DNA of 64,000 nt, from assembly GCA_963727715.1 (NCBI GenBank), contig CAVSGX010000004.1, forward strand, positions 82,582-146,581, read 5' to 3'. The position numbers were made by a program, and so were the translations under genes. Positions 31,227 through 49,103 of this stretch are shown here, piece after piece (within the stretch, counting starts at the first letter, position 1; each line of letters opens with the position of its first letter). The notes below the pieces were generated by a model, which saw only the letters and a program-made list of their open reading frames with translations, did not search any database and was not told the DNA's origin. The DNA comes from an uncultured bacterium. Lineage in GTDB: Bacteria; Patescibacteriota; Minisyncoccia; Phycocordibacterales; DATDWN01.

Positions 31227-31252
31227 AATTTTTGATACTACATTAAAAGAAT

Positions 31253-33250
31253 TTATTTCACAACTCTTTCATCACCACTTTGAAAACCCGGGTCTGAGTA
31301 ATGGGTGGTCACATCTCCGGCTGAAGCGTCAACTTCGTGCTCTACATAAGTGTCGGTGGCCGATACGTTTGATGAGGGCAGAAGATCAATTGGCGATCCG
31401 ATTTCGGTCAGACTTGGGGTCAGACCGACCTGGAAAGAGACGCTTCTTGGTGAGTAGGTAAAGCCGGTGCCGGCAGAAACATTCCCAACTAACCAAGTAA
31501 TGAGGCGCGAGTCCGGGTTGTAGGAAATGCGTTCACTTGCCGGAGAAGTTTGGTTTCCCCAAACAAGACCAACTGGCAAAGTGGCTGTGACCGTCGCGCC
31601 GGAAAGATCATTGGAAGTGTTGGTCAGCGTCCATGTGATAGTGTAGGTTGATTCGTTGTTGGCTTTCGGCGGAATCGGTCCAGTGTTTTGAAAAGGCCCG
31701 ACCAGACGATAAGATTGGGCGGATAAGTTGAGATTGGAAAGGAATTTAAAAGTCATATTTTGAGTAGAAGAAATGTCGGACGCCGATAATCCTGTTCGAC
31801 TGCCGGACATGACGACCGATATGTCAATGTGTGGGTTTTCAATATTCTGGATTTGCGACCGGTTGGAAATTGGAGAAAGCGAAAAAGAAACTTGGCCAGA
31901 ATCACCTGGTGAAATTTCCGACAATGATCCCGTGGTGTTTTTGTCCCATAAAATTGAATTGTCTGACGAACTGTAAAATCCCCCGTTGTTAGCATTTACC
32001 TGGGCCGGATCAAAAACATTGCCGGAAAGTTTTACACTGATTTTATTGTTGACGATTTTATCAGGCAAAGTGTTTTGAAAACCTAAAATCAAAGAGACCG
32101 GCTGACCAAGCGAAGTGAATGTTTGGCTGGCATTTGATGAGTTTACAATAGACAAACCAAAAAATGATTTGCGTATGCCGACGGTGGCCAACTGCTCGGA
32201 AAGTGGATTGGTAAAATTCAGTTGGCCGGAAACTTCCGGCACGCCGACGGAAACATCAAAAGACCTGTCCTCCATATCTTGCCCGACTAATGTCCCGGTG
32301 ATGGTCAAATTTTTATTATCGCCGTTTTTAAAATCACCCAAGGACCACATGGCCCCAACCGAACCGGCCTTGGCGTCGGTAGTAGTTGATAAATTTGGAC
32401 TACTGGTGCTGGTGGAAGTGTTGAGATTGTCAGCCAGTGTCAGATTTCTAACAGGTTTTATATTTGAACTTTCATAGGTAAAACCGTAAGGATACTCCAC
32501 TTTGACCAGAGTGCCGGAAATGACAACATTGGAATTGGAGGTCAGGTTGATGGACAGGGTAACCTCCTGTCCAGAATTTACTTCCTGCGGATAAGAAACA
32601 TTCAAAAGTAAAGGTGAAGAGCTTATTGAAACGGCGTAATCTTTCTCTTTGGAAAAAACGGCAGCGGAGCCGACCACGGTGTATTCCAATTTCATAACAA
32701 TGTTTTGAACCGAATCTTTCGGCCCGAATAAAATTGCCCTAATAGACTGATTCTTGACTTGGCCTTTGGCAATACCATTCAGTGAAAATTGATCGCGGGT
32801 AAGAGGGGCGCCACCCCCGCCAGCCACCTGAGCGTTTGGCGGATAAGAAATAGTCAGTTTGACATTTTGCAAATCAACACGATTTTGATTGACCACAGAC
32901 AACCCCAAATCCAATTCTTCGCCGGAAGAGACAGAGCTCGGACCGATAATCTTAATGTCAACATTGTTGGAAGAAATCATATTAAACCCCCCGAAAAATA
33001 TAAAAGCGGCGACACCCAGAGCCAAAATAAAAAATATGACCGAAATCAGGAAAAATTTATTGAAAAATGAATTATTTTTTTGCGACATTTTTTTGTCCGA
33101 AAAATCAAAACCTTTATCATCTCCCCAATCCGGTGGCACAGTATAATCTTGACCCGAAACAGGAGTTCTTTTTTCCTTTGGCACCATATCTTCATTGCGC
33201 GAGTAAAGTGATTGTTTTAGATTTTCCAATCTATCTTTTTTGAAATCCAT
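31253..33250 (-). CDS. Membrane-anchored extracellular Thr/Ser-rich protein (hypothetical). Probable start at Met 33250.
   Basis: Cytoplasmic N-terminus, one TM helix ([24 protein letters not shown]) and a long beta-rich ectodomain. The ORF-track start at 33412 would overlap rplB. Confidence 0.5.
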
Positions 33251-33312
33251 TGCTGAATTATAACACAAAAATTTTTTCAAAAACACCACGAGGGTGGTGT
33301 TTTTGTTTGTTT

Positions 33313-34155
33313 CTATTTTCTTTTGCCAACTTTGCGACGAGAGATGACAAATTTGTTTGAGTATTTTTTCGGTGTGCGAGTTTTTTGACCCTTGCCTGTC
33401 GGTCGGCCCCATGCCGAAACGGCCCGACGGCGACCACGGCCTTGTCTGCCTTCTCCACCGCCGTGCGGGTGATCTACCGGGTTCATGGCTGTGCCACGAA
33501 CGGTCGGGCGAATGCCAAGCCAGCGCGAGCGTCCGGCTTTACCGAGATTGACCAAACGATTTTCTTCATTGGACAAAACGCCGATTGAAGCGAAGCAGGT
33601 TTCTTTGACTCTGTGAATTTCCGAGGACGGCATCTTGAGGTCAACCATCCCGGCATCCTTGGCCACCACTTCCAGATAATTCCCCGCCGAGCGTCCGAAC
33701 TTGGCCCCGCCCTGCGGTTTGACTTCAACATTGTAAACAAAAGTGCCGACATTTATATTGCGCAGAGGCAAGCGATTACCAACTTTTTGTTCGGCCGTCT
33801 CGGAGGTCAAAAACATTTCTCCAATTTTTACACCTTGTGGGATCAGAACATATCTTTTTTCTCCATCTCGATACTGGACCAAACCGATGAAAGCGCTGCG
33901 GTTCGGATCGTATTCAATCGTTTTCAAAGAGTAAGGAATACCTATTTTGTCATATTTAAAATCAACTTCGCGGAAAAGTCTTTTGTGCCCGGCGCCTTTG
34001 TGGCGAGTGGTCACTTTGCCGTGATGGTTTCTACCGACAGCCCGTTTAAATCCACGAGTCAGAGATTTTTCTGGTTTTTGAGTGGTCAAAATATCGCCAA
34101 AAGAAATGGTGGTCATGCCTCTACGCGATTTTGATGTTGGTTTGTATTTTTTCAT
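33313..34155 (-). CDS. rplB: Ribosomal protein L2.
   Basis: …GRNHHGKVTTRHKGAGHKRLFR… and …PHGGGEGR…. Confidence 0.97.
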   Translation of the reverse strand: MKKYKPTSKSRRGMTTISFGDILTTQKPEKSLTRGFKRAVGRNHHGKVTTRHKGAGHKRLFREVDFKYDKIGIPYSLKTIEYDPNRSAFIGLVQYRDGEKRYVLIPQGVKIGEMFLTSETAEQKVGNRLPLRNINVGTFVYNVEVKPQGGAKFGRSAGNYLEVVAKDAGMVDLKMPSSEIHRVKETCFASIGVLSNEENRLVNLGKAGRSRWLGIRPTVRGTAMNPVDHPHGGGEGRQGRGRRRAVSAWGRPTGKGQKTRTPKKYSNKFVISRRKVGKRK

Positions 34156-34244
34156 ATTATTAAGATGTAAAAAGTAATGAGTAAGGAGTAGGGGAAAGAT
34201 TTTGCGTTTTTTACTCCCTACATCTTACTTCTTACTTATTGTTT

Positions 34245-34526
34245 TCAAATTATCTCTACTTTCTGACCTTTCTTCAAAAAAACATAGGCTTTTTTGTAAC
34301 CAGCCTTCATCCCTTTCTTGCCACGCACAAAAACTTTTTTGGCCGGGATATGTACTGTAGTCACCTTGACTGGTTGAGTTTTGTATTTTTCCACAAAAGC
34401 CTTTTCGATCTCCTTTTTGGTTGACATTTGGGGCACTTCAAAAACATAAACGGAAGATTCCGAGACAAGGGTGGCCTTTTCGGTAATGCACGGCCTGATT
34501 AAAATTGAAGCGAGATTTGTTTTCAT
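34245..34526 (-). CDS. rplW: Ribosomal protein L23.
   Basis: Size, position between rplD and rplB, and the sequence ILIRPCITEKATL.... Confidence 0.85.
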   Translation of the reverse strand: MKTNLASILIRPCITEKATLVSESSVYVFEVPQMSTKKEIEKAFVEKYKTQPVKVTTVHIPAKKVFVRGKKGMKAGYKKAYVFLKKGQKVEII

Positions 34527-34531
34527 GTTTT

Positions 34532-35299
34532 TTATTTTTTAGCCACAACTTTTTTCTCCACTTTCTTTTCTGTTTTTTTGACAGATGTTTTTACTGCTTT
34601 AACTTTGACTTCTTTTACGGTTTTCACGGTCTTGGCCTCGCCGAGCTTGCCTGAAATTTGAGCCAAACTTTTCTCCGGGTTTTCAATTATCAAATATTTA
34701 TAATTCAAAAGATCAACCGGATTCAGGTTGCGAACCTCATCAACCAAAACGTTGTTGAAATTGTGAAAACTTTTTTCGGTCGCAGAATCCTTTTTGGAAA
34801 ATGCCAAGATGGCCGAGTTGTTTTTTTTGGAAAGCAAAGTTTCGTAGCCGGAGATTTTGGAAAGTGAGGAAAGAACATCCTTGGCTTCCTTGGTTTTTGG
34901 CGTTCTGAAAGAAATGTCATCAACAAAAATAATTTGGCCATCTTTGTATTTGGCCGACAAAATAGTGTAAAAAGCTTTGGCTTTCATTTTCTTGTTGATT
35001 TTGCGGTCGTAATTTTTGTCATTGCGTGGACCGTGAGTCACTCCGCCGTGAGCCCAGATCGGTGATCGAGTTGAACCGTGTCTGGCTCGGCCGGTGCCTT
35101 TTTGTTGCCAAGGTTTTTTGCCACCGCCGGAAACATCTCCGCGGTTTTTAGTATGAGCTACTGGTGTGCGCTGTGAAGACATCATGGAAGTTACAACCTG
35201 ATGCACCAAGTCAGCGTTCCAAGGCAAGCCGAAAACATTTTCAGCCAGCTGAATTTTTCCTGTTTGTTTTCCTTTTTGATTGTAAATTGTTGCTTCCAT
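34532..35299 (-). CDS. rplD: Ribosomal protein L4, with a Lys-rich C-terminal extension.
   Basis: …GGGKKPWQQKGTGRARHGSTRSPIWAHGGVTHGP…. The tail is KVKAVKTSVKKTEKKVEKKVVAKK. Confidence 0.92.
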   Translation of the reverse strand: MEATIYNQKGKQTGKIQLAENVFGLPWNADLVHQVVTSMMSSQRTPVAHTKNRGDVSGGGKKPWQQKGTGRARHGSTRSPIWAHGGVTHGPRNDKNYDRKINKKMKAKAFYTILSAKYKDGQIIFVDDISFRTPKTKEAKDVLSSLSKISGYETLLSKKNNSAILAFSKKDSATEKSFHNFNNVLVDEVRNLNPVDLLNYKYLIIENPEKSLAQISGKLGEAKTVKTVKEVKVKAVKTSVKKTEKKVEKKVVAKK

Positions 35300-35317
35300 T
35301 TTTTATTTTCAAAAATT

Positions 35318-35929
35318 TTATCCTCTGATTTCCACCAGTGTTCCCTTCCTGCCGGCCACCGCTCCACTAATGAAAATCTCTCCTGTTTCCGGAGAAACTT
35401 TAAGCACGGTCAAACCTTTCGTGGTGATTCTGTCACCACCCATTCTGCCAGCCATGCGTTTGCCTTTGGCCACCCGTCCGCCATCGCGACCAGCGCCACC
35501 GATCGAGCCCGGTTCACGCTCAGAGTGCTTCTGACCGTGACTTCGTGGGCCACCGTGGAAACCATGTCGCTTGACCACACCCTGAAAACCTTTGGCCTTG
35601 GAAATGGAGGAAACGGTCACGGTCTCACCACTTGCGAAAGAAGATAAATCTATTTTGTCTCCCATCGCAAATGTCGCATCACTTCCCGTTTCAAATTCTT
35701 TAAGATAAGCATAGTTGCCACCCTTCATGTGACCTTGCATCGGTTTGTTAACATTTTTGGCGTTGCGTGAGCCATAACCAACTTGAACAGCGTTGTAGCC
35801 GTCTTTTTCCATAGTTTTGATTTGAGTCACGGTCAAAGGCCCGGTTTTCAGAACCGTTACCGGATGAACTACCCCCCCCTCGTCAAAGATTTGGGTCATA
35901 TTCTGTTTTGTGGCCAGCAAGAATTTCAT
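35318..35929 (-). CDS. rplC: Ribosomal protein L3. Start at Met 35929.
   Basis: MKFLLATKQNMTQIFDEGGVVHPVTVL...KAKGFQGVVKRHGF.... Confidence 0.92.
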   Translation of the reverse strand: MKFLLATKQNMTQIFDEGGVVHPVTVLKTGPLTVTQIKTMEKDGYNAVQVGYGSRNAKNVNKPMQGHMKGGNYAYLKEFETGSDATFAMGDKIDLSSFASGETVTVSSISKAKGFQGVVKRHGFHGGPRSHGQKHSEREPGSIGGAGRDGGRVAKGKRMAGRMGGDRITTKGLTVLKVSPETGEIFISGAVAGRKGTLVEIRG

Positions 35930-36064
35930 TTTGGTTCCAAATTTGCAAATTAAAAAGCCCACAGGCAATGTTGGTATCCTAGCAGATATTGATTTTTATT
36001 TCAAGCCCCGTTGTAGTGTTGACTTACGTAACCAAAATAGTACCATAGCTAGCGGAGGTCTGTT

Positions 36065-36292
36065 ATGAAATTAGAATCAATTTGCCGGGGAATGCATGAC
36101 AACCCTAAAGAAACAGTTGTTGATATTGAAATAATAGCGGAGACAGCAGAAGAAGAGGAAATCATTAACAGGGCGGCGACAATGGTGATGGTTCAAGACA
36201 TACAAAGTATGGGTAAGATGAGCCTATCATCCGCTTGTCACCTCGTCGCAAAACGTGCTCTTAGCATAAGTTTCTACAAAAGAACGGTCTAG
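36065..36292 (+). CDS. Small hypothetical acidic protein (75 aa), antisense-embedded between rplC and rpsJ.
   Basis: GGAGG Shine-Dalgarno 6 nt upstream of ATG 36065. Stop codon sits in the loop of a perfect 20-nt palindrome followed by a T-run. Confidence 0.4.
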   Translation: MKLESICRGMHDNPKETVVDIEIIAETAEEEEIINRAATMVMVQDIQSMGKMSLSSACHLVAKRALSISFYKRTV

Positions 36293-36309
36293 ACCGTTCT
36301 TTGTTTTTT
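36279..36309 (+). terminator. Rho-independent terminator of the 75-aa ORF.
   Basis: Perfect palindrome agaacggtctagaccgttct (36281-36300) plus ttgtttttt. Confidence 0.65.
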
Positions 36310-36326
36310 ATAAAATTTTTCCGAGA

Positions 36327-36755
36327 CTAGATTATCTTCACATCTATGTTCACCCCGCTCGGCAGAGACATATTTGTCAGGGCTTCCATGATTTTCGGGT
36401 TCGGATTTAAAATGTCTATCAGTCGCTTATGTATGCGCATCTCAAACTGCTCGCGCGCGTTTTTGAAAATGAAAGACGATCGGCCAACAGTGTATTTCTT
36501 GTTGACAGTCGGCAAAGGTATCGGGCCCAAAACTTTAGCGTCGTAACGTAAAGCCGTGTCAATAATTTGTTTAACGGACAAATCCAAAATCTTGTATTCA
36601 TAAGCCTGCACCCTGATGCGCAGTTTAGAAACCGGCTCGGCTTTGGCTGGAGCTTTGACAGCAGTTTTTCTGACAGCCGGTTTTTTGACTGCAACTTTTT
36701 TCTCAGTCGGTTTCTTTGCAATCATTTTTTTTTCTTTGACTTCTTTTGTAGCCAT
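36327..36755 (-). CDS. rpsJ: Ribosomal protein S10, with a Lys/Ala-rich N-terminal extension. Start 36755 is favoured over the ORF-track 36800 because a TTGACC-17-TAGTAT promoter overlaps 36775-36810.
   Basis: [38 protein letters not shown]...[31 protein letters not shown]. Confidence 0.9.
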
Positions 36756-36829
36756 ATGTTTTGTTTTTTGAATACTAGCAGATAATATTTTTTTGGTCAA
36801 CTTTTTTGTTTGACAAGGTTTTACCCTCC

Positions 36830-37868
36830 TGTTAGTTAACCTTTGAATTTAGACACTCAGTTAGAAATAATTGAGTGATATGAAAACATTTAAACATTTG
36901 TCATACGAGGAAAGAGTTTTGATTTCAGCTTTGTTCTCCGAGGGTTGGAGTGCAAGGAAAATTGGAAAGAAACTTGGCCGGCACCATTCATGCATTGCCT
37001 ACGAAATGAAAAAGAAAGTGAAAGGTTTGTATGTAGCCAAGAAAGCTCACCACAAAACATACTGGAGGAGATATTTAAGCAAGAAGCAGTGTATGAAAGC
37101 TGCTTTGGACAGAGAACTGTCCAAATTCATTCCGGAGAAATTGAAAGAAGGATGGTCGCCGGAGAGAATATCAGGGTATTTCAAACTGCAAGGAAAAAAC
37201 ATCTCAACTAAAGCGGTGTACAAATTCGTGTATTCCAGATGTTTGGAAAGATATCTGTTTTGGAGAAAACACCACAAGAAAAGTGGTTGGAAAAAGAAAA
37301 GATACGGTAAAGCCATCGATGAGAGAAAATACATTGAAGACAGACCGAAAATGGAGAGATCTGGACACTGGGAGGGAGATTTCATTGTCTCATCTCACAA
37401 CGCTTGTTCATTATTTGTCTTGGTTGACCGATATTCCAGAGATACCATCACTCGCAAAATTCCAAACAGAAAGCACGCAACGGTATTGCGTGCTTTCTTG
37501 GATTCTCTGCGTAATATGCCAGTCAAGACAATTACACTAGACAATGATATCGCATTTAATTGTTGGAGGAAACTGGAAAAACAACTAAAATGTTCGATAT
37601 ATTTCTGTCACCCATATCACTCCTGGGAAAAGGGTTTGGTTGAAAATACAAACAAATGGATCAGGGTGTTTGTTCCAAAGAGAAAAGATTTGAGAGAAGT
37701 CACAGAAGAAGAGCTTCGTTCAATTGAAAAGTTTTTAAACGAAATTCCTCGTCAATGTCTTGGATTTAGGACAGCAAAAGAGGTATTATTAGATTCAATG
37801 AAGTGTCTAAATTGAGGGGTGCGGAAACGTCCTCGCTATAATACAGGTATTACAATTAACTAAAATAC
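36830..37868 (+). mobile_element. IS30-family insertion sequence, copy B, inserted between tuf and rpsJ. Putative terminal inverted repeats ttagttaacctttgaattt / aattaactaaaatact.
   Basis: Carries the transposase at 36871-37815. Ends are approximate. Confidence 0.55.
36871..37815 (+). CDS. IS30-family DDE transposase (intact).
   Basis: N-terminal HTH (LSYEERVLISALFSEGWSARKIGKKLGRHHSCIAYEMKK). DDE core ...HWEGDFIVS...TLDNDIAFNCW...HPYHSWEKGLVENTN. Confidence 0.85.
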   Translation: MSDMKTFKHLSYEERVLISALFSEGWSARKIGKKLGRHHSCIAYEMKKKVKGLYVAKKAHHKTYWRRYLSKKQCMKAALDRELSKFIPEKLKEGWSPERISGYFKLQGKNISTKAVYKFVYSRCLERYLFWRKHHKKSGWKKKRYGKAIDERKYIEDRPKMERSGHWEGDFIVSSHNACSLFVLVDRYSRDTITRKIPNRKHATVLRAFLDSLRNMPVKTITLDNDIAFNCWRKLEKQLKCSIYFCHPYHSWEKGLVENTNKWIRVFVPKRKDLREVTEEELRSIEKFLNEIPRQCLGFRTAKEVLLDSMKCLN

Positions 37869-37869
37869 T

Positions 37870-38196
37870 ATGGGGATGGAATCATTTGGGGAAACAACTC
37901 CTGCTCCACAAGAAGAGACACCAGCGGTAGAAGGAGTTGTGAATGAAAAAAGTGCGACAGAAAAAGGGCTAGACGATGAAAGACAATTACTCAAATATTG
38001 TGATGAAGAAATGCAGAATATGCAACAAAGATACGAGAATTATATGAGGTCGTCAAAAGATCCCGATAACATAAAAGCTGGTGAGGATTTCAGAAATGCG
38101 CAAGCATGTTTAAGGGAGGTGAAAAATTGGAAAACAAAGATTGATGAACATAATATAAATGTAGAAAGATTGGAAGCAAAATTAAACATGCAATAA
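37870..38196 (+). CDS. Hypothetical acidic coiled-coil protein (108 aa) abutting the IS30 right end.
   Basis: ORF followed by a strong terminator. No motifs. Confidence 0.35.
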   Translation: MGMESFGETTPAPQEETPAVEGVVNEKSATEKGLDDERQLLKYCDEEMQNMQQRYENYMRSSKDPDNIKAGEDFRNAQACLREVKNWKTKIDEHNINVERLEAKLNMQ

Positions 38197-38211
38197 TGTA
38201 AAGATACTATC

Positions 38212-38240
38212 AAAAAACCACCGGGAGGTGGTTTTTTGAT
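38212..38240. terminator. Bidirectional rho-independent terminator (3' of the 108-aa ORF on plus and of tuf on minus).
   Basis: aaaaaaccacc-ggga-ggtggttttttga. Confidence 0.8.
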
Positions 38241-38263
38241 TTTGCGCACTCGCACTTTTTTAC

Positions 38264-39460
<1,197 letters not shown>

Positions 39461-39553
39461 ATAATTTTTATAATTAAATAATAATTTTTGTTCCGAGCTA
39501 ACTGCAAAAGCACAATACTCGAGAAGTGACTGTGCCCTAGCAATTAGCGACTA

Positions 39554-39626
39554 TATCCGCACACTAAGTCTGCCATCGCTTCGCCGTGTTTTGAAAAAAC
39601 ACAATGGCAAACTTAGTGTGCGGATG
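39554..39626. repeat. Palindromic structured element, family 2, copy 2 (~95 nt upstream of tuf).
   Basis: ccgcacactaagtctgccat...atggcaaacttagtgtgcgg with inner gtgttttgaaaaaacac. It differs from copy 1 by paired compensatory substitutions. Confidence 0.8.
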
Positions 39627-39772
39627 AAAACAAAAGTACCGCTAAAACGCGATAATATATATATTATACAAAATCAAAAGTAATGTCAACAAAAAATATA
39701 AAAATCAGCCGCACCTTGTGAGATGCGGCCGTGACCAAATGGTCAAGTGTTAGGGAAAGAACTGGTGCGATG

Positions 39773-40543
39773 TCAGCGGGTCTGACGCTGGCGGTTGAGA
39801 CTGACCATCCAGGTCTGACTATCGACCCGTTGGTAGTAATTGTTCCGGTTCAAGTAAACCGAGAACTGCGCGGTGGCGATGCCACCGTCCGCCGGACGAG
39901 CAACCGCAGTCAGCTGAATCGGCACATTGTCCGAGTCGAGAAGCCCAAGAAAGAAAGTCATGGTCATCGAACCTCTCGGGCAGAGGTTGCGCGCCACAAC
40001 ACCTTTAGAACTCGCGATCTCAATCGGCAACGCGCTTGTGTTGACGACACGCACCACCACCGACTGGTAAATCCGCGTCACCCAGTGCGGAGGTTCAACC
40101 TCCGGATTGACCCAGAAGTTTCCGTCGGGGCACCCGGTGATTTGCGCGTCCGCGATGACCCGCCTAGCTTCGCGCTTGATCTTCGCCTGTTGTTTCTCCT
40201 CGTGAGCGATTTGCCTTTCGGCTTGCTTCATCGCCGGAGACTCGGCCTTGTGCGCTTCGCGCTCGGCCTTTTTCAGGTTAGCGTTGGCTTCGATGGCAAG
40301 TGCCCTCAGGCGAACGATCTTCTCCCGATCGGTCTCGCCGGCGGGTGCTGTTGTCGGCGTTGTGTTCTTTTTTGATTCCTTCTCCTTCTTGACTTTGGTG
40401 GTCTTACCGGCCACCTTGTCCAACTCGCTTTGGAGCGCCGGCGTCTGAGCTTGCGCCCAAACTGCACCGGAAAAAGAAAAGAAAATGACTATGGTTGCGA
40501 CCGTCAAATTTGATTTGTGCATGGCTTGTACCTCTACTGACAA
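39773..40543 (-). CDS. Secreted hypothetical protein with a coiled-coil region, encoded in a GC-rich island (~39730-40545).
   Basis: Signal peptide MHKSNLTVATIVIFFSFSGAVWAQA. Lys/Glu-rich coiled-coil. GC content visibly higher than the flanking DNA. Confidence 0.55.
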   Translation of the reverse strand: MSVEVQAMHKSNLTVATIVIFFSFSGAVWAQAQTPALQSELDKVAGKTTKVKKEKESKKNTTPTTAPAGETDREKIVRLRALAIEANANLKKAEREAHKAESPAMKQAERQIAHEEKQQAKIKREARRVIADAQITGCPDGNFWVNPEVEPPHWVTRIYQSVVVRVVNTSALPIEIASSKGVVARNLCPRGSMTMTFFLGLLDSDNVPIQLTAVARPADGGIATAQFSVYLNRNNYYQRVDSQTWMVSLNRQRQTR

Positions 40544-40584
40544 TTATACACCTTTTCACATTTTTTGTCAAGTTCAATTTACAG

Positions 40585-40617
40585 CAAAAATCTGGCTCAA
40601 CAAGGCCAGATTTTTGT
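40585..40617. terminator. Bidirectional intrinsic terminator.
   Basis: aaaaatctggc-tcaacaag-gccagatttttg. Confidence 0.6.
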
Positions 40618-40619
40618 AA

Positions 40620-40795
40620 TAAGCAGATTCAAATAAGAAAATACTTTTCCGGCACATCGCGCAAGAGGTTAGAAAACAACGACGTAGGCCTGAGTATACA
40701 GGCCGAGGAGAATTGTTTTCTTGACCGACGAGCGGGAAGAAAAATCGCACCAGCGATTTATTCTGGTGACGGAAAAGTATTTTCTTATTTGAGAC
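40620..40795. repeat. Long inverted-repeat element: ~26-bp perfect arms aataagaaaatacttttccg / cggaaaagtattttcttatt flanking a ~120-nt core.
   Basis: Arms read directly from the sequence. The core is distinct from family 1 but the architecture is similar. Confidence 0.6.
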
Positions 40796-40808
40796 AGATG
40801 CATCCCAA

Positions 40809-41108
40809 CTAAGCGACCGGCACAAGCAAATCTTCTTTCAATTTTGCCACTTCTTCTTGTCGCATTTGCTCAAATGTCGGAATTTTGCTGGCCAAAAATT
40901 TCAAAACATCTTGTGGAGTAGTGGTGTCTTCATCCAAAAGCAAATCGAGCTCGGTCTGTTCTTTCTCGGACAAAATATCCAGCGAGCGAACCATTACGGC
41001 CTGATACAGAAGCCGGCCGATGCGATCCACCATTTCAACCTGCTTCATCTCCGGAAGATTCTGCAATCCCCACTCAGTGATCATTTCTTTTGATAAAATA
41101 TTTTGCAT
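40809..41108 (-). CDS. Hypothetical protein (99 aa).
   Basis: ORF downstream of the giant gene. No motifs. Confidence 0.35.
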   Translation of the reverse strand: MQNILSKEMITEWGLQNLPEMKQVEMVDRIGRLLYQAVMVRSLDILSEKEQTELDLLLDEDTTTPQDVLKFLASKIPTFEQMRQEEVAKLKEDLLVPVA

Positions 41109-41176
41109 TTGTTGAGTTTAATTATATCAAATCGACAAAATCACTTTTTTAATCACTTGTTAATAACTTTTTCAAA

Positions 41177-44100
41177 TTAATTATGTTTTGTCGCCATTAG
41201 GAGTGCGGTCTTAAAACTTTTTTTGGCCAGTTTGAAAGCTCTATCATATACGGTGTCGGCCATCAAAAAGTTGTGGTGAAGTTTTGGATCAAGGTTAAGT
41301 TTCAAACCTTTTTCTGTTAACAAACCTTTGGCAATTTCCTTGCCGTTGAGAAGAGCATGGATTTCGTCCGGATGACCCGGGACACCATGAATGAGACTTA
41401 ATCTGCCATTTTCAAACGCAAAGTTGGTTGTACTCTTTGGGACCGGGATGTTCATTCTGTCTTGAGCTATGACAAAAGCCTCACGAATCGGTGCGCTTTT
41501 TGGTCCATCTTGGAATCTATCGAGTAGTTGCATCCCGCTTGCGCCATTTGGCAATTTGACGGACTGTGCTACCGCTTCACCCTGAACAAAAATTTGTTTT
41601 TGTCCCCCGGCCACTTCAACAACACTCGTATGAAATTTCCCTTCTGCACCATTTGCTGCTTTGACAATGTGATCAAACTCAATGGCACCGGGCGTTTTAG
41701 GTGTGTTGGCTAGATTTTCGCCGACATGAGAAAAATTATGGATGTTGACCGGAGCGTGCGCTAAATCGGTATCAACCGGTTTGGAAAAATCAAGTGGTTT
41801 ATAATTTCCTGACACCTTATACGGTTCTGACACCAAAAATTCATTTTGGGGCTCGGTAACATCGGCAGGTTTCGGCGCCACAATTTCGTGCGGAACTGGC
41901 GCTTTCGGAGCAAACATTTTGTCGGAGTGTAGTGATTCAAAATTGTGCTCGCCTGTGCCAATAATTTCTGTTGGCTTGCCGGCGGCGGTTAGGTGTTCCA
42001 ATTTCAAATGACCTTCAGCGTCAACAGCCAAAGCTTCGCCTTTCAGCCCCATCGCGCTCGTGCCATGTTTGGCATCCCAAAAGCCATACTCTTGTGCCAG
42101 TTTGGTGCTCGGAGTTTCCACAAAATGTTTAACACCAGCCGGCATTTTACCCGCGTCAGGATATTGCGCTTTCAGTTTGTCTTTCATATCGTCAAATGTC
42201 TGGATAAATCCGCGGGAAGAAAGTTTGACTTCAACCACATTGGTCGCCTCCGGCATCTTCGGTCCAAGCGGAGGAGTAGCAACTTTGGGAGCGGGCGGCT
42301 GAGTGACGACTTCAGATACTTTCGGCGCAGGTGGTGTTTCGGCGGGCATTGTTAGTTTGACGGTTGGTGGCGCTTCGGTTAGAACAGGAGGTTTTGCTAC
42401 GGTTGGAGTTTCAGCCGGCATAGCTGGCTTTGCCGTGACAACTTCGGCGTGCGTTGTCCCGGTTTTTGGTGTGTTTTCAGAGTGGAACATTTTGTAAAAG
42501 AAACCATGTTGTCCAGATTGGACAGCGCCCGGAACATTGCCAAATTGATTGGCCATGGTTAAATCAGTGGCTATATTGACCCCGGCGCCGACAGCCACCA
42601 TAACCGCAGCCTTTTTTAAAATGCCACGCTTTTTTCTGTTTTCTTCTTTCTCTTTCAATCCCATCAACTCTTTTTCTTTGATTTCATAATTGTCTTCAGT
42701 CAATCCTTCAGCATATCTTCTCAAATTTTTTTGTTTCTTCCTTTCCAAACTCCATTTGGTGATTGAATCCACACCTTTGCCTGCCGCTTGACCAGCCAAA
42801 GCGCCGCTAAGAGATCTCGCCCCTCTGTAAGCCAAAGTTGTGCCGATACCAACAGTAGCCACAGTGCCGAGAGTCATACCAAGGCCAGTCATAACAGCCG
42901 TAGTCAAAGCGATTCTGGCCGGCAAAGGCAACTTGGCCCATTTTTCAAATGATTTGCCAATAATTCCCTTCTCCAAAGGCGGGACATTCTCGGCGATTCT
43001 TTTTTGCAAAACTTCCCATTCCTTTTCGGCTTGAGTAATAGCTCTACACTTGAAAATTGCGGATGCTTTTTCTTCATTTGACAAATTTTCATCCAAACCA
43101 AGATCATTTATTTCTTTTTCAATCCCGGGCATCGAAAAAATTTCTTCCATCTTTTTTTTCTTGGATTGGATATAGACGGCTTCGGCCGCTTCTAGTCGAA
43201 CTTTGACTTCTGTCATGTCTTGCGGAGTAACCTTATCAAATCTGTGAAATATTTCGTCTATTTTTTCTTCTAGACCAACTTTGGACGCCAAACCCCTGGT
43301 GGTTCTGTGGATAAAACTTCTGTTATTCATTATGTCCTCAGTTGTCTCACCTAAGCCTACACTGTTGGCCAAATCACTGGCTTGTTTATAAACCCATTTT
43401 TTCTTTTCCCGATTTTTATTTTTAAACTCCACCAAAACACTGGCATAAGTACCTCGCGCCTCGGCCAATTCCATGTCCACTTCGGAAAGTGCTTCCGCCA
43501 CTAGTGGAGCATTTTCAACCGCCCCAGACAGCACCGGCTCAGGTGGTAATGGACCAGCTACTGGTATTACTTCCGGACTGGCAGAAGGTTGCGGGGTTAC
43601 TTCCTCTTCTTGCCCAGGTTGCTGAAATTCTTCTTCATATTCGGCAAACTCATCAATACCAAAAATACCAAACAGTTCTCTCCTTTCGGCTTTACTTAGG
43701 TGACCTTTCTCAAGGTCAAAATCAATTTCTCTTTCCAATCCTTTTTTCTTGGATTCATACGGCTCAGAACTTCTGGAGGATTCTTCTATGATTGTAATGA
43801 GATTCCCTAAATTGGAATGATCTTCACTCTTGGACAAGGTTACCAAAAATTCAACGGCCTTTTCATATCTCTCTGATTCAGGATTTTCTTTTTGTTCTTC
43901 CGTTGTTTCAAAATTTTTACCGGCAGTTTTCACTGATGTTAACGGTTCTGTCGGTTCTACTTCCGTTTCCGAAGCTGGAATAACAGGTGGAAAAGGTAGG
44001 AAATCTTTGTTTGACACACTCGGAGAATTATCTTCAACTGGGGCTGACTCTTCTTCTGCTGTTATTATCGGCTCAACAATATGTTCAGAAGTTATTGGTT

Positions 44101-44482
44101 GATTTCCATTTAAGGCTTCAATTATTTTTTCATACCCCTTTATTTTTTCAACAAAACTGGACGCCCTTTCTTTTTTTTCTTCTTCATTATAATCGTTATT
44201 AGACAAAATAAATTCCAAAGTCCTTCTATCATTTGCAAGTCTTTCTTCAAAAAATTTTACTGGGTTAGATTCTAATGTAGATATTTCCCCCCGACAAAAT
44301 TCAACCATTCTTTCATCGTTTTTTGCACCAAAATGTACTAGTTGTTCTTTGTATCTTTGAAGTTCTTCATTAATACGAACCGTGACAAATTCTGGTCTGT
44401 GTTCCCTAGGATTCATATGATCCTCCAATTCTTGTTTGAGCGCCTTTGGATCTATATTTAAAGCATTTGGAGACTCCATGTT
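41177..44482 (-). CDS. Giant hypothetical protein (~1100 aa): acidic coiled-coil N-terminal half, Pro-rich linkers, two or more TM segments in the middle, C-terminal globular part. The start is uncertain (44482 or 44539).
   Basis: Hydrophobic segments LTTAVMTGLGMTLGTVATVGIGTTLAY and AAVMVAVGAGVNIATDL. Low-complexity PAPK/PPAP repeats. No catalytic motifs recognised. Confidence 0.5.
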   Translation of the reverse strand, partial: NMESPNALNIDPKALKQELEDHMNPREHRPEFVTVRINEELQRYKEQLVHFGAKNDERMVEFCRGEISTLESNPVKFFEERLANDRRTLEFILSNNDYNEEEKKERASSFVEKIKGYEKIIEALNGNQPITSEHIVEPIITAEEESAPVEDNSPSVSNKDFLPFPPVIPASETEVEPTEPLTSVKTAGKNFETTEEQKENPESERYEKAVEFLVTLSKSEDHSNLGNLITIIEESSRSSEPYESKKKGLEREIDFDLEKGHLSKAERRELFGIFGIDEFAEYEEEFQQPGQEEEVTPQPSASPEVIPVAGPLPPEPVLSGAVENAPLVAEALSEVDMELAEARGTYASVLVEFKNKNREKKKWVYKQASDLANSVGLGETTEDIMNNRSFIHRTTRGLASKVGLEEKIDEIFHRFDKVTPQDMTEVKVRLEAAEAVYIQSKKKKMEEIFSMPGIEKEINDLGLDENLSNEEKASAIFKCRAITQAEKEWEVLQKRIAENVPPLEKGIIGKSFEKWAKLPLPARIALTTAVMTGLGMTLGTVATVGIGTTLAYRGARSLSGALAGQAAGKGVDSITKWSLERKKQKNLRRYAEGLTEDNYEIKEKELMGLKEKEENRKKRGILKKAAVMVAVGAGVNIATDLTMANQFGNVPGAVQSGQHGFFYKMFHSENTPKTGTTHAEVVTAKPAMPAETPTVAKPPVLTEAPPTVKLTMPAETPPAPKVSEVVTQPPAPKVATPPLGPKMPEATNVVEVKLSSRGFIQTFDDMKDKLKAQYPDAGKMPAGVKHFVETPSTKLAQEYGFWDAKHGTSAMGLKGEALAVDAEGHLKLEHLTAAGKPTEIIGTGEHNFESLHSDKMFAPKAPVPHEIVAPKPADVTEPQNEFLVSEPYKVSGNYKPLDFSKPVDTDLAHAPVNIHNFSHVGENLANTPKTPGAIEFDHIVKAANGAEGKFHTSVVEVAGGQKQIFVQGEAVAQSVKLPNGASGMQLLDRFQDGPKSAPIREAFVIAQDRMNIPVPKSTTNFAFENGRLSLIHGVPGHPDEIHALLNGKEIAKGLLTEKGLKLNLDPKLHHNFLMADTVYDRAFKLAKKSFKTALLMATKHN

Positions 44483-44678
44483 GCTTTCATTATATTCCCC
44501 TATAAAAATATTCGCAACAAAAAAGATCCTATTTTGCATTTCTCGAAAAGCAATCTGTCTAGCCCTGCTGGGCTAGTGAACTTCTCGTCGTCCAAGAAAA
44601 CAATCCACGGATTACCGTGGTTGTTTTCTAAACTCCTGCGAAAGGCTTTTCTTGAAACACAAAAAGGATTTGCGTGAA

Positions 44679-46838
44679 TTATTTTCTTGCCTCAATTATC
44701 GCTTTCTCAACATTCGGCGGGACGACTTCATAGTGGTCAAATTCCATCATCATTGAACCGCGACCTTGGGTCATGGAGCGGATGTCTGTGGTGTAGCCGA
44801 ACATTTCGGAAAGCGGCACTTTAGCGTGAACGACACGAAGCTGACCGCGTTCATCCATTCCTTCTATTTGCCCGCGCTTGCCGGAAAGCGAGCCGGTAAT
44901 GTCACCCATAAACTGCTCCGGCATGACAACTTCCACTTTCATAATAGGTTCCAGAATGACCGGGCGAGCGCGCTTGGCGGCATCTTGGAAAGCCTGCGAA
45001 GCGGCGATTTTGTAAGCGATTTCGGAAGAGTCAACATCGTGATACGAACCGTATGTCAGCTCGCAGGAAACATTGACCATCGGATAGCCGGCGACAATCC
45101 CGCGACCCATCGCTTCGCGCACACCTTTCTCCACAGCCGGAATAAATTCCTGCGGGATGACACCGCCTTTGATGGAATCAATGAATTCAAAGTCATCGTA
45201 GCGTTTGACATTTTTCGGAATTTTTTTGCCCTCGGCAATCGGCTCCATCGGTTTCAAATTTAATTTGACGTGACCATACTGACCTTTGCCACCGGTTTGT
45301 TTGATGTATTTGTGTTCGGCTTCGGCCGTGCCGAGAATGGTTTCGCGATATGCCACTTGCGGTTTGCCGACATTGGCTTCCACCGAAAATTCTCGCTTCA
45401 TTCTTTCAACCATAATTTCCAAGTGGAGCTCGCCCATGCCGGAAATGATAGTCTCACCGGTTTCGGTATTACTCGAAATAACAAATGTGGGGTCCTCGTC
45501 GGAAAGTTTTTTCAAAGCCAAACCCATTTTTTCCTGGTCGGCTTTTGTTTTCGGTTCAATGCGCAAAGAAACGACAGGGGCCACGAATTTGATCGGTTCA
45601 AGGATGATCGGCTTGTCCTCGTCGCAGAGCGTGTGTGAAGTTTTGGCTGATCTTTAATCCGACAGCCGCGGCGATTTCGCCGGCGAAAACTTTTTTGACT
45701 TCTTCGCGCTTGTCGGCTTGCAGACGGACGATGCGACCGAGACGTTCTTTTTCGCCTGTTGTTGAATTGTAAATATATGTGCCCGCCTCAATCGTCCCGG
45801 AATAGACGCGGAAGAAAGTCAGCTGACCGACGAACGGATCGTTTTGCAGTTTGAAAGCCAGAGCGGCAAAGGGCTCTTCGTCTGAAGCGTTGCGATAAAT
45901 ATCCTCACCGGTTTTCGGGTCTGTTCCGTGTACCGGCGGAATATCAGAGGTGATGGTAAATAGTCCACCACTCCGTCGAGAACGAGCTGCACGCCTTTGT
46001 TTTTCAGCGCCGAACCGGCGTAAACAGGAACGATTTTGACGGCGATGCAAGCTTTGCGCAAAGTGGTTTTGAGTTCTGGGACAGACGGCTCGCTTCCTTC
46101 CAGATATTCATGCATCAGTTTGTCATCTTCGGAAACAATTTTTTCCACCAGTTCATCGCGATATTTTTTTGCTTCTTCCAAATATTCTGCCGGCATTTCC
46201 GCCTCGCGAACGTTGATACCCATATTACCTTCAAAGTAGTAGGCTTTCATATCCAGCAAATCAATCACACCTTCAAATTTATCTTCCAATCCCATCGGGA
46301 TTTGCATTCGCACTGCGTTTTTAGTCAGACGATCCAAAATGGAAGCGTATGATCTTTCAAAACTCGCGCCTGTGCGGTCCAGCTTGTTGATGAAGCAGAT
46401 GCGTGGCACGTTGCCGTCGTCGGCATAGCGCCAGTTGGTTTCGGATTGTGGTTCCACACCGGCCACACCGTCGAAAACCACCACCGCGCCGTCGAGCACA
46501 CGAAGCGAGCGTTTGACCTCGGCTGTAAAATCAATGTGCCCGGGAGTGTCAATAATATTGAAACGATAAAGATTTTCATGCAGAGGTTTGCCGTCCGCGC
46601 CACGAGCTTTGTATGTCGGGTTCCAGAAACAAGTGATGGCTGCCGCCGTGATAGTGATGCCGCGTTCCCTCTCCTGCTCCATCCAGTCGGTCACCGTTTC
46701 GCCCTCGTGCACTTCGCCGATTTTGTGGGTCATGCCCGTGTAGAAAAGCACGCGCTCCGAAGTGGTCGTCTTTCCTGCGTCAATATGGGCAATAATGCCG
46801 AAATTTCTGACTTTCTCTAATGGGTAATCTCTGTTCAT
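44679..46838 (-). CDS. fusA: Elongation factor G, fragmented into three ORFs (45819-46838, 45598-46050, 44679-45584) by two apparent 1-nt frameshifts (~45945 and ~45642).
   Basis: N-terminal [18 protein letters not shown]...DTPGHIDF...NKLDR. Domain [16 protein letters not shown].... Domains III-V ...[27 protein letters not shown].... The frames reconnect at ...VDYLPSPL|DIPPVHG and ...AAAVGLK..|..[14 protein letters not shown]. Confidence 0.9.
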
Positions 46839-46941
46839 ATAAATTTGTTGAATAAAAAAATTTGCAAAAAATAAAAAACGCTAACGAGTAATTGGAGATA
46901 CTATAGCTTAATTCACCAAAAATTGCAAAAAATTCTGGTCA

Positions 46942-47241
46942 GTGCTTATTAATGGCAGAGGTAGTATGCTACATCTGTTGACCATTACCTATCAAAGAAT
47001 AAATAAAGAAATTATATTAAGGAGTTATGATGAAGAAAGTAGGGCATTCTTTCATGAATTCATGAAGAATTATCCTGGTGGATTTTTCCCAGATAGGAAA
47101 AAATCTCCAAATGAGACCATTTTGAATATACTTCAATTATTGGAAAGCGGTGCAGAAAAATTCTACGAAGTAGTTTCCATTTCTGAGGTTACAACAGACA
47201 CTTCTTTTGATTGGGATGTATGGTATAGAAACAAAACCTGA
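46942..47241 (+). CDS. Hypothetical protein (99 aa, GTG start), on the opposite strand between rpsG and fusA.
   Basis: ORF with its own downstream intrinsic terminator. Confidence 0.35.
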   Translation: MLINGRGSMLHLLTITYQRINKEIILRSYDEESRAFFHEFMKNYPGGFFPDRKKSPNETILNILQLLESGAEKFYEVVSISEVTTDTSFDWDVWYRNKT

Positions 47242-47263
47242 CCCGAGTGGGTCAGTTTTTTTA
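47236..47263 (+). terminator. Rho-independent terminator of the 99-aa ORF. Its T-run overlaps the rpsG stop codon on the other strand.
   Basis: ctgaccc-gag-tgggtcag followed by ttttttt. Confidence 0.7.
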
Positions 47264-47734
47264 CCAGGCGAAGTGAGCAAAGGCCTTGTTAGCTTCTGCC
47301 ATTTTGTGAGTATTTTCGCGTTTGGTCACGGCGGCGCCTTCGCCTTTGGAAGCTAGAATAATTTCGTCAGCCAGTTTTTCAGCCATTGGTTTGCCTTTGC
47401 CGGCGCGGGCGGCATCTACAATCCATTTCATTGAAAGAAAACTTCGGCGTTCCGGTCTGACTTCCCTCGGCACTTGGTAGTTGGCCCCGCCAACTCTCCG
47501 CGAGCGGACTTCGGTCAGTGGTCCTGTGTTTTTCAAAGCGGTGTCAAAAACTTCCATAACATCCACTGTCGTAGCTCCGCCTTTTTTGATAATTTCAAAT
47601 GCCTCGTAAACAATTCCGCGAGCCGTCTGCTTCTGACCGCGTTGCATGACATAGTTAATAAACTTGGCTACTTTTTCCGAGTTGTATTTATTTTCTTTCT
47701 TGACAATATTTCTGTTTTTAACTTTTCTTCGCAT
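47261..47734 (-). CDS. rpsG: Ribosomal protein S7.
   Basis: Typical S7 sequence (…RSRRVGGANYQVP…), in the rpsL-rpsG-fusA context. Confidence 0.95.
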   Translation of the reverse strand: MRRKVKNRNIVKKENKYNSEKVAKFINYVMQRGQKQTARGIVYEAFEIIKKGGATTVDVMEVFDTALKNTGPLTEVRSRRVGGANYQVPREVRPERRSFLSMKWIVDAARAGKGKPMAEKLADEIILASKGEGAAVTKRENTHKMAEANKAFAHFAW

Positions 47735-47776: not shown

Positions 47777-48190
47777 TTATTTAGCTTTAGGTTTCTTGGC
47801 TCCGTAATTTGACCGACTCTGTCTCCTGGCTTCCACGCCGGTGGCATCAAGCACCCCGCGCACGATGGAATAACGCAAACCGACATCGCGCACTTTGCCC
47901 CCGCGAAGCATTACCACCGAGTGCTCCTGCAAATTATGCCCCATGCCCGGGATGTAAGCTGTCACTTCGTAGCCGTTGGTCAGACGAACGCGAGCGATTT
48001 TGCGGATAGCCGAGTTCGGTTTCTTCGGCGTTTTGGTTGTGACTTTAGTGCAAACACCGCGTTTAAACGGAGATGAGTAAAAAACCGGCCGGTTTTCCAG
48101 ATTGTTGAATCCGCGCGTCAAAGCCACCGATCTTGGTTTGCGTTTGTTTTTATGTCGCTTTTTTTTGATTAACTGATTTATTGTGGACAT
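47777..48190 (-). CDS. rpsL: Ribosomal protein S12.
   Basis: …[52 protein letters not shown]…. Confidence 0.97.
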
Positions 48191-48965: not shown

Positions 48966-49103
48966 GAGAAAATTTCTAATTTTTAATTTCTAATTGACCT
49001 AAACAATAACCAATCTCTAAGTCCCAATGCCCAAAATTTTTGGTTGGTCATTTGTTACTGGAATTTATTTAGAAATTAGATTAATTAGAAATTAGAAATT
49101 TGA
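48966..49103. promoter_or_regulatory. AT-rich upstream region with TAGAAATT / AATTTCTAA repeat boxes. The proximal and distal boxes are identical to those upstream of comEC (62259-62404).
   Basis: Proximal box gagaaaatttctaatttttaatt abuts the start codon. Distal box ttagaaattagattaattagaaatt. Both are 23-25 nt identical between the two loci. Confidence 0.6.

Follow-up and report, generated by a model that had tools for sequence, protein, structure and literature searches.

Canonical bacterial str and S10 operons carry rpsL-rpsG-fusA-tuf and rpsJ-rplC-rplD-rplW-rplB-rpsS-rplV-rpsC, followed by further genes. The window analysed here, a 64-kb stretch of contig CAVSGX010000004.1 (assembly GCA_963727715.1; 43% GC, standard bacterial code), shares these genes from rpsL to rplB, in the same order and on a single strand. 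In contrast to the canonical operons, terminator/promoter pairs and 0.4-5.2 kb of other DNA lie between rpsG and fusA, fusA and tuf, tuf and rpsJ, and rpsJ and rplC, the cluster stops at rplB, and rpsS and the genes that follow it do not occur within 33 kb. Most of this fragmentation is common to the clade, and the cluster belongs to the universal str/S10 arrangement in the order of its genes but not in their contiguity. EF-Tu encoded in the window is 80-88% identical to that of Zambryskiibacteriota, Kaiserbacteria, Adlerbacteria, Campbellbacteria and other Paceibacteria/Patescibacteria metagenome-assembled genomes (MAGs), and because of these identities the window was assigned to a Candidate Phyla Radiation (CPR) genome of the Paceibacteria. 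Our overall reading, which we hold to be likely, is that the locus is an order-preserving but fragmented Paceibacteria str/S10 cluster that combines an inherited block with recent additions, is broken after rplB and contains frameshifts that stem from assembly errors. The conserved gene order, the clade-wide variable spacers, the inherited block between fusA and tuf, the multi-copy insertion sequence (IS) and the break after rplB are read directly from the data.

A first-pass annotation of this DNA had listed the pieces of the region, and all of them were recovered, in place or nearly so, by scans for open reading frames (ORFs), Pfam families, repeats, promoters and terminators. On the minus strand the backbone consists of rpsL (S12; 47777-48190; 85% identical to rpsL of the related locus L002), rpsG (S7; 47261-47734; the exact protein is present on the deposited contig and in the Logan assembly), fusA (EF-G; 44679-46838; 719 codons in three pieces joined by two compensating frameshifts), tuf (EF-Tu; 38264-39460; exact protein on the deposited contig), rpsJ (S10 by Pfam; 36327-36755; a Lys-rich N-terminal extension, with a Logan gene call of 142 aa) and the tightly packed rplC, rplD, rplW and rplB (33313-35968; ORFs with homology to related loci). 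Most of the layout was reproduced by an independent assembly, the Logan short-read contigs of run ERR11594402, which match window positions 57090-46027, 45774-40715 and 36857-25039 at 99.6-99.97% identity. Here, contig L204 (57090-46027; 99.93% identity) runs from recG through rpsL and rpsG to the 5' end of fusA; L206 (45774-40715; 99.6%) covers the 3' end of fusA, a giant ORF and a gene for a DUF5663-like protein; L205 (27383-36857; 99.97%) covers an M16 peptidase gene, a NUDIX gene, glyS, a surface-protein gene and rplB through rpsJ, together with 19 nt of the IS; and L202 (27411-25039; 99.75%) covers the metG region.

The first-pass annotation took the cluster for a backbone broken by insertions, a departure from an ancestor in which fusA, tuf and rpsJ were adjacent and co-transcribed. 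The comparison with related genomes that it proposed was run on 80 fetched tuf loci with 10-kb flanks, and spacer distances were measured on the Patescibacteria loci among them. The interruptions proved to be real, but interruption is usual among the relatives. The fusA to tuf spacer, 5218 nt in the window, ranges from 116 to 6260 nt in the relatives and exceeds 300 nt in 31 of the 34 Patescibacteria loci. Likewise, the window spacers between rpsG and fusA (422 nt) and between rpsJ and rplC (358 nt) fall among values of 6-4932 nt and -2 to 4792 nt, respectively, while the tuf to rpsJ spacer (1463 nt) compares with 35-170 nt in most relatives and with exceptions of 0.6-2.6 kb. The contents of these spacers vary by lineage and include response regulators, kinases and hypothetical proteins. 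Large, variable spacers are therefore the rule in the relevant clade, and a departure from a contiguous ancestor in the sense proposed is not supported.

The longest of the window's spacers contains a block of genes that the comparison also found in relatives, in the same order upstream of tuf, in the related loci L002, L003, L081, L082, L170 and L182 and in contig P0005 (8.5 kb, available as a gene table without DNA). In L002 and L003 a protein of 1134 or 1547 aa is followed by a 95-96-aa homologue of the window's 99-aa DUF5663-like protein and then by tuf, and L170 and L182 share this arrangement. The order in L081 and L082 is a large ORF, the 99-aa DUF5663-like gene, a structured element, a secreted-protein gene and tuf; L083 and L084, whose contigs are cut upstream, begin inside the 3' part of the structured element and continue through the secreted-protein gene into tuf. 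The P0005 gene table lists the block genes in the same order, with three extra genes, one for a ParE-like toxin, before tuf. Because the same order precedes tuf in these relatives, the block can be regarded as a set of old residents, and its four parts (giant ORF, 99-aa gene, structured element and GC-rich secreted-protein gene) have an ancestral arrangement where insertion had been supposed. The additions in P0005 comprise a ParE/YafQ-type toxin gene, a 93-aa ORF upstream of the toxin and a 294-aa ORF between the secreted-protein gene and tuf, and they point to turnover in this part of the spacer.

The first gene of the block encodes a giant membrane-anchored hypothetical protein (41177-44539, minus strand). 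Its reading frame of 1120 aa, about 1100 aa from the likely start at M21, confirms the giant hypothetical gene of the first-pass annotation, and homologues occupy the same place in L002, L003, L081, L170 and the P0005 contig; no Pfam, NCBIfam or PHROGs family matched it. The 99-aa protein that follows (40809-41108, minus strand) is 42-86% identical to homologues in L001-L003 and L081, which in the closest relatives adjoin tuf or lie one gene away from it, between fusA and tuf. Against PF18908 (DUF5663) the window protein scored 13.9 bits, below the gathering threshold of 23.7, and is called no more than DUF5663-like for this reason; a weak match to the same family was present in four of five orthologues (best E = 4.8e-4).

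The secreted-protein gene (249 aa; 39773-40522, minus strand, with an alternative upstream end at 40543) had been described as part of a GC-rich, possibly horizontally acquired island. It lies in the 770 nt with the highest GC content of the window (0.578; window mean 0.431, standard deviation (sd) 0.044), has a GC content of 0.564 and a third-position GC (GC3) of 0.685, about 3 sd above the genes of the window (mean 0.442, sd 0.078), and shows the lowest codon fit to the other window genes. By windowed GC and codon usage it is the top outlier of the window, and this part of the earlier description stood. Acquisition in the recent past was not supported. Only five homologues were found in 5.8 billion proteins, one of them 100% identical and four at 50-61% identity, and the orthologues occupy the same site. 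In the three orthologous contigs for which DNA was available, the gene has a GC content of 0.52-0.54 and a GC3 of 0.60-0.64, compared with 0.41-0.50 in the flanks. Enrichment in orthologues this diverged argues against recent horizontal acquisition by the window genome. Moreover, no mobility genes, integrase, tRNA or direct repeats flank the gene, which is bordered by a terminator, a promoter and the structured element.

Genomic islands share clear GC and codon outlier status with this gene. In contrast to such islands, however, it consists of one gene that has a consensus promoter and a terminator of its own and no mobility genes, and relatives carry it at the orthologous site with a GC content that is likewise raised. 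Present in relatives and free of mobility flanks, it resembles a recent island in composition and fails to do so in the two other respects. The alternative that a compact, co-transcribed str/S10 backbone was recently broken by independent insertions, the GC-rich gene being a horizontally acquired island, draws on the strongest compositional deviation in the 64 kb (GC, GC3 and codon fit alike), on a preference for AAG, GAG, GCG and CGG unlike that of any other gene set in the window, on the scarcity of homologues and on the absence of the IS, a 75-nt palindrome and the small ORFs from relatives. Against this stand the GC-enriched orthologues between the DUF5663-like gene and tuf in at least four other lineages, the ordinary terminator and consensus promoter where an integrase, a tRNA or direct repeats might have been, and fusA-tuf spacers that match the clade norm. 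We regard this alternative as improbable, and for the fusA-tuf block it is largely refuted. Judging from the orthologous loci, the GC and codon signal is a long-standing property of a resident gene and not the mark of a recent import.

The promoter of the secreted-protein gene (40543-40571, minus strand) is a perfect sigma-70 consensus, TTGACA-17-TATAAT, and the only 12/12 match in 17.6 kb. Homologous promoters and equivalent terminator hairpins are found at the same site in L081, L083 and L084. The codon usage of the gene correlates better with that of tuf, fusA and the ribosomal-protein genes (r = 0.65) than with that of the remaining genes (r = 0.38). Since its promoter is a perfect consensus, the gene is probably highly expressed. 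The protein begins with a signal peptide, and modelling suggests a helical hairpin followed by a beta-rich C-terminal domain or beta-sandwich; the AlphaFold2 model, built from five sequences, had a predicted local distance difference test score (pLDDT) of 57.7, too poor for a fold search.

Downstream of tuf, the spacer before rpsJ contains an insertion sequence (36838-37821, plus strand). It is an ordinary IS30. Like other members of the family, it carries a single transposase gene (36880-37815) for a protein of about 311 aa with HTH_38 (PF13936) and rve (PF00665; DDE) domains (NCBIfam NF033563, 204.4 bits against a cutoff of 80), is about 1 kb long (~985 bp, intact), is bounded by 19-nt inverted repeats (36839-36857 and 37802-37820; 84% complementary) and has near-identical copies. 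At least four more copies at 99% identity or above are present on other contigs of the same assembly, one of them split within an A-rich run, which bears out the insertion called in the first-pass annotation. It differs from described IS30 elements in that no 2-3-bp target-site duplication was identified at the inferred ends, which are uncertain by a few bases, and in that its host is a CPR bacterium. Metagenome contigs of about 1 kb hold many relatives at 65-85% identity, and the nearest named one, 65% identical, is annotated as Paceibacterota. A second IS30-type transposase gene, 39% identical and with an HTH_38 match, was noted at about 20249-21247 (plus strand); its longer frame would need read-through of one TGA.

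The IS30 lies between the terminator of tuf and the promoter of rpsJ and is for that reason probably harmless. The first-pass annotation had placed an rpsJ promoter at the edge of the IS. The promoter is present (36800-36772, minus strand; TTGACC-17-TAGTAT), but it is not derived from the IS: L170, which lacks the IS and has a different 190-aa gene in its tuf-rpsJ spacer, carries TTGAAT-17-TAGTAT upstream of rpsJ, and this homologue identifies the window promoter as native. On the other side of tuf, the 5' leader contains a 75-nt palindrome (family-2; 39555-39629) that forms a long perfect-stem hairpin, has an 88% identical copy at 3905-3979 and is absent from the tuf leaders of L081, L083 and L084. 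The second copy (3887-3993) overlaps the predicted start codon of an MscS-like gene (3210-3926), so that both copies occupy 5' leader positions of minus-strand genes; partial matches were seen in the metagenome loci L155 and L185 and perhaps in L159 (131-209). Next to the palindrome, a further hairpin (39485-39550, minus strand) keeps its sequence in L081, L082 and L084, the L081 copy having an insertion of 14 nt in the loop, and may be a cis-regulatory or processing element for tuf. Neither the tuf leader nor the family-2 palindrome matched Rfam apart from spurious miRNA-hairpin matches.

At the other end of the cluster, a terminator hairpin directly 3' of rplB (33278-33305) closes the S10 segment and is followed on the minus strand by genes for a 719-aa surface-type protein (DUF11-like) and for glycyl-tRNA synthetase (29840-33250; Pfam assignments). 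The substitution of this pair for rpsS, rplV and the genes beyond, as first annotated, was confirmed, and the junction with rplB is contained in L205. Searches of the window by tblastn with the relatives' proteins returned no match for rpsS, rplV, rpsC, rplP, rpsQ, rplN, rplE or rplF. In the relatives, rplB is usually followed by a gap or an inserted ORF and then by rpsS-rplV-rpsC onward. L170 has a terminator, a 135-aa ORF and a new promoter at this point, and the surface-protein gene and glyS are also adjacent in the metagenome contig L161. Because L205 spans the rplB junction and enters the IS, both the break and the IS insertion can be taken as real and not as mis-joins.

From these data we infer that the cluster is divided into separate units bounded by hairpin terminators and by promoter-like sites of their own. 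A consensus scan placed hairpins directly past rpsG (47238-47255; CTGACCCGAGTGGGTCAG, with T-tails on both strands, terminator-like for both rpsG and a plus-strand ORF), fusA (a small hairpin, 44605-44620), the structured element (40584-40617, a canonical hairpin read from the sequence and folded), the secreted-protein gene (39706-39731, minus strand), tuf (38209-38240, with a 14-bp stem, bidirectional and serving the plus-strand 108-aa ORF as well) and rplB. The same scan placed promoter-like sites before fusA, the giant ORF (44517-44489), the secreted-protein gene, tuf (39689-39661; TTGACA-17-TAATAT), rpsJ and rplC; in all, 52 promoter-like sites were counted, compared with 24 in shuffles. 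According to the proposed model, the cluster would be a chain of at least six units, namely rpsL-rpsG, fusA, the giant ORF with the DUF5663-like gene, the secreted-protein gene, tuf, rpsJ and rplC-rplB. The spacers between units would tolerate extra DNA, and different lineage-specific genes and repeats occur in them across the clade. The giant membrane protein, the DUF5663-like protein, the structured 3' element and the secreted-protein gene would form an old block from the common ancestor of the close relatives, to which this genome would recently have added one insertion of an active IS30 that occurs in several copies, the palindrome of 75 nt that lies in the tuf leader, and small ORFs; in the comparison, these three and the break past rplB were the genome-specific pieces. 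A rearrangement would have parted rplB from rpsS and the rest of S10/spc at a point that carries a terminator and insertions in relatives. With the units insulated from one another, the DNA between a terminator and the next promoter may be nearly neutral, and such near-neutral landing sites would explain why lineage-specific genes, insertion sequences and repeats gather there.

In the first-pass annotation fusA appeared as a single gene, and its frameshifts had been missed. At the first site, past the ...PSPL codons at about 45945/46, one base is missing relative to every homologue, and at the second, past ...AAVGLK, there is an extra G at 45652. The 98 codons between the two sites are perfectly conserved in the other frame, and the repaired protein of 719 aa has the length of EF-G in relatives at 90% identity or above. 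Two further genes of the window carry similar lesions: metG (25150-26608, minus strand) is split by an extra C at 26037, with a GG>TT change two bases away, and an extra A at about 31092 relative to L205 reduces the glyS ORF of 461 codons to 413. At three of these four sites the short-read contigs keep the reading frame: L206 reads GGATTAAA-ATCAGCC at the second fusA site, L202 encodes an intact 485-aa MetRS, and L205 holds the longer glyS. The proteins called on the deposited contig correspond exactly to these broken fragments, which places the lesions in the public record. Since three of the four sites are undamaged in the short-read contigs, errors in the consensus of the deposited assembly, and not biology, are the most likely source of the frameshifts in fusA, metG and glyS. 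The IS30 copy that is split within an A-rich run of the same assembly fits this reading.

The competing explanation is that fusA is truly disrupted, either as a very recent pseudogene with a second EF-G elsewhere or by two programmed frameshifts (-1, then +1). It can point to the frameshifted N-terminal fragment, which is called on the deposited contig exactly as found here, to the compensating nature of the two shifts, which keeps the total at 719 codons, with an intervening stretch of 98 codons that is perfectly conserved in the alternative frame, and to the position of the first site outside the short-read contigs. However, neither site has a slippery heptamer or a stop or rare-codon context (the junctions read CCT-CTG-ATA and AAG-ATC), the 99.6% identical short-read contig lacks the extra G at the second site, metG and glyS, which carry lesions of the same kind, are intact in short reads, and close relatives have an uninterrupted 719-aa EF-G. 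No second fusA was found within the 64 kb, and other matches to the EF-G pieces, in related loci, fall on tuf. A genuine disruption is thus very unlikely. Programmed frameshifting was rejected on the lack of a slippery or stalling context and on the in-frame relatives and L206, and an alternative code with UGA as a sense codon was rejected since the pieces lie in different frames and the long ORFs of the window have no in-frame TGA. A search for near-identical EF-G sequences spanning both junctions was dominated by fragments at 94% identity or below and gave no information on the first site. A 301-aa EF-G fragment lies on L203 (an 876-kb contig; ENA ERZ25039590) from another error-ridden long-read assembly. 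In that CPR assembly, rpsG and fusA at about 5000-9200 are shredded into many small gene calls, an example of the indel-ridden long-read MAGs found in public collections.

That the layout is an assembly chimera, with mis-joins at the rplB/surface-protein junction and at the IS30 between tuf and rpsJ, is hardly credible: the assembly does hold repeated IS copies and indel errors, and the 23S gene at the window start does look abnormal, but L205 runs uninterrupted from the M16 peptidase gene and the NUDIX gene through glyS, the surface-protein gene and rplB to rpsJ and 19 nt into the IS, ending at 36857 inside its left inverted repeat, L204 and L206 cover recG to the 5' end of fusA and the 3' end of fusA to the DUF5663-like gene, and the surface-protein/glyS adjacency recurs in L161. 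The 23S rRNA gene in question (412-2513, minus strand) fits the whole 2925-position model into 2.1 kb with a low score of 790 bits; the part of the alignment that was viewed contains insertions of 247 nt and of more than 100 nt in the 5' domain, and a tRNA-Ala(UGC) gene (370-446, minus strand) overlaps the 23S 3' end. This suggests a truncated or strongly rearranged gene or a mis-assembly of the region.

Several observations weigh against parts of the overall reading. No short-read contig covers the first fusA site, which falls in the 253 nt between L204 and L206 (46027 to 45774). Of about 30 single-nucleotide polymorphisms (SNPs) between the window and the short-read contigs, some 23 lie inside fusA, in a stretch of 1.8 kb (44876-46710); none was found in the rest of L204 and L206 (~14 kb), and L202 and L205 have 2-5 each. 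This cluster suggests strain mixing or recombination/allele exchange at fusA, and the concentration of SNPs there leaves room for a real, strain-specific fusA lesion. The long-read technology of the deposit is itself something we infer, because 1-kb repeats were resolved. The units rest on consensus scans and not on transcripts, and terminator-like sites were not enriched over shuffles (24, with 22.8 expected), so the terminator assignments depend on placement past stop codons. The absence of rpsS onward holds for the 64-kb window, the rest of the genome not having been inspected. Finally, the GC-rich gene favours AAG, GAG and GCG in a way that the highly expressed genes do not, and it may therefore conceivably be of ancient foreign origin.

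The structured element of the block (40620-40801, minus strand) is a copy of a repeat family of about 175 nt, here called fam-1. It runs in the sense of the genes, starts 7 nt past the stop codon of the DUF5663-like gene and had been noted before as an inverted repeat. Its arms (40629-40655 and 40766-40792) are 27 nt long and 96% complementary, and its folding energy lies far from that of shuffled sequences (z = -12.7). Repeat and model searches placed three further copies in the window, at 2970-3147, 7895-8074 and 18395-18572, all on the plus strand. The last of these starts directly past the stop codon of an ORF (18041-18394), just upstream of recA, and two of the three are antisense to the ends of neighbouring genes. 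A covariance model (R1) was built on five sequences that included 40620-40801, so that the 130 bits scored by that copy are expected. The copy is a diverged orthologue of those at the same position in L081, L083 and L084, and every helix has been kept by compensatory changes. In other relatives the model found copies directly past fusA (L001), upstream of rpsL (L002) and between rpsJ and rplC (L148 and L170). A degenerate pattern for the fam-1 core matched 117 metagenome stretches and none of 2.9 million viral contigs, and a phage origin was rejected on this ground.

The fold of fam-1 is supported by the alignment of 65 copies, in which 88% of cells pair, compared with 62.7% in shuffles and 40-50% with slid partners, and 56 of 63 pairs show changes on both sides. 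An independent MAFFT/RNAalifold run returned the same fold, with compensatory changes in 41 of 56 pairs. A closing stem of about 30 bp varies freely in sequence while its pairing is kept, and the element further has two internal hairpins, an almost invariant G.U pair and the conserved single-stranded motifs GTCCTCGGC, TTGTCAA/TTGACAA and CCTGCGG. The termini are semi-conserved (AAAATCTC...GAGATTTT), and the 3' tail reads YAGTGGTGATTTT. Wobble pairs leave the strand ambiguous: two conserved G.U columns favour the modelled strand, whereas the variable stems hold 105 A.C/C.A cells and 48 G.U cells. In Rfam 15 nothing matched the family at the gathering score, and at E <= 1 there were only spurious matches to miRNA hairpins; a literature search covering CPR operon structure, REP-like repeats, structured RNAs of CPR bacteria and DUF5663 turned up no relevant work. 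It appears to be undescribed, and is the only component of the finding that does.

Repetitive extragenic palindromic (REP) sequences and bacterial interspersed mosaic elements (BIMEs) are proteobacterial palindromes, many of which are found no more than about 15 nt from a stop codon and influence both the stability of the mRNA and the termination of translation. Like them, fam-1 is dispersed, multi-copy and extragenic, forms strong hairpins and sits immediately 3' of stop codons: 53 of 83 copies have their start at -12 to +19 nt relative to the stop codon of an ORF on the sense strand. The genes upstream are diverse housekeeping genes (EF-G, LepA, RpoD, L31, DnaB, RNase Y, GreA, YidC), and an ordinary terminator often lies downstream. 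In contrast to REP/BIME units (a hairpin of ~35 nt, or a single palindrome of ~20-40 nt), fam-1 spans about 175 nt with 56-63 base pairs in 4-5 helices and has conserved single-stranded motifs, and its stems vary with compensatory changes around a conserved core; no RAYT-type transposase was seen, no search aimed at one having been made. Integron attC sites likewise conserve structure more than sequence in a long stem and lie directly past an ORF in the same orientation; however, attC ends in RYYYAAC...GTTRRRY instead of the fam-1 termini, and fam-1 differs from it further in its highly conserved core, in upstream genes that are housekeeping genes and not cassettes, and in the lack of an array and of intI. 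An attC or integron site was accordingly rejected on termini and upstream genes, and a miniature inverted-repeat transposable element (MITE) of the resident IS30 was rejected because the ends are unlike the IS30 inverted repeats. Position and polarity relative to stop codons suggest a module of the 3' untranslated region (3'-UTR). We give roughly even odds to fam-1 being an undescribed class of structured element of Paceibacteria-type CPR bacteria that acts as a 3'-UTR RNA module and has spread or been recruited repeatedly, helping the spacers to grow. Such a module might serve as an mRNA 3'-end stabiliser, as a processing or protein-binding signal, or as a source of 3'-UTR-derived small RNAs.

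The small ORFs on the opposite strand, all present as annotated, differ in their standing. The 108-aa ORF (37870-38196, plus strand), which lies outside the IS, has distant homologues of 98-105 aa (E 1e-9 to 3e-7) that share an LKYCDE...DPNN...W...ERLE motif, and this conserved hypothetical is probably a real gene. The 75-aa ORF (36065-36292, plus strand) has, as described in the first-pass annotation, a GGAGG Shine-Dalgarno sequence and its own palindromic terminator (36279-36302), and an identical protein is called in the short-read assembly. No homologue of it was found in about 2 Mb of related loci, NCBIfam or PHROGs, large protein databases not having been searched. The plus-strand 99-aa ORF at 46942-47241 did not fare as well: it lies in the most AT-rich stretch, a spacer of 31-33% GC, its frame is lost in the 99.93% identical L204 (GGG versus GG at 47088-47090), and no family or homologue was found in Pfam, NCBIfam, PHROGs or the related loci. 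It is doubtful as a gene.

Elsewhere in the window, a tRNA-Ile gene with a UAU anticodon, uncommon in bacteria, was found at 57036-57110 (minus strand). Immediately upstream of rplJ (5551-6039) and rplL (5045-5527), the Rfam L10 leader gave a sub-threshold match (6055-6168, minus strand; 26 bits, E = 0.32). Two 58-nt AT-rich inverted repeats, at 49044-49101 and 62262-62319, are 84% complementary, contain AATTTCTAA-like units and lie 13 kb apart, and direct repeats akin to these units occur at 48971, 62263, 62347 and 63451.

With four frameshifts in essential genes within 64 kb that are best read as consensus errors, pseudogene counts for the deposited assembly are not to be trusted. The GC-rich gene illustrates that a strong GC and codon outlier can be an old resident, and composition alone would have led to a mistaken call of horizontal transfer here. 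If fam-1 acts as RNA, it would add a new and abundant 3'-UTR element to a phylum about whose RNA biology hardly anything is known, and the covariance model together with the 80-odd copies makes such a role directly testable. Overall, the finding is an ordinary though instructive trait of CPR genome organisation. Pipelines for annotation and binning often assume a contiguous block of 16 ribosomal genes and an adjacent fusA-tuf-rpsJ, an assumption that fails as a rule in Paceibacteria, where the spacers are the places in which lineage-specific secreted and membrane proteins, insertion sequences and repeats pile up.

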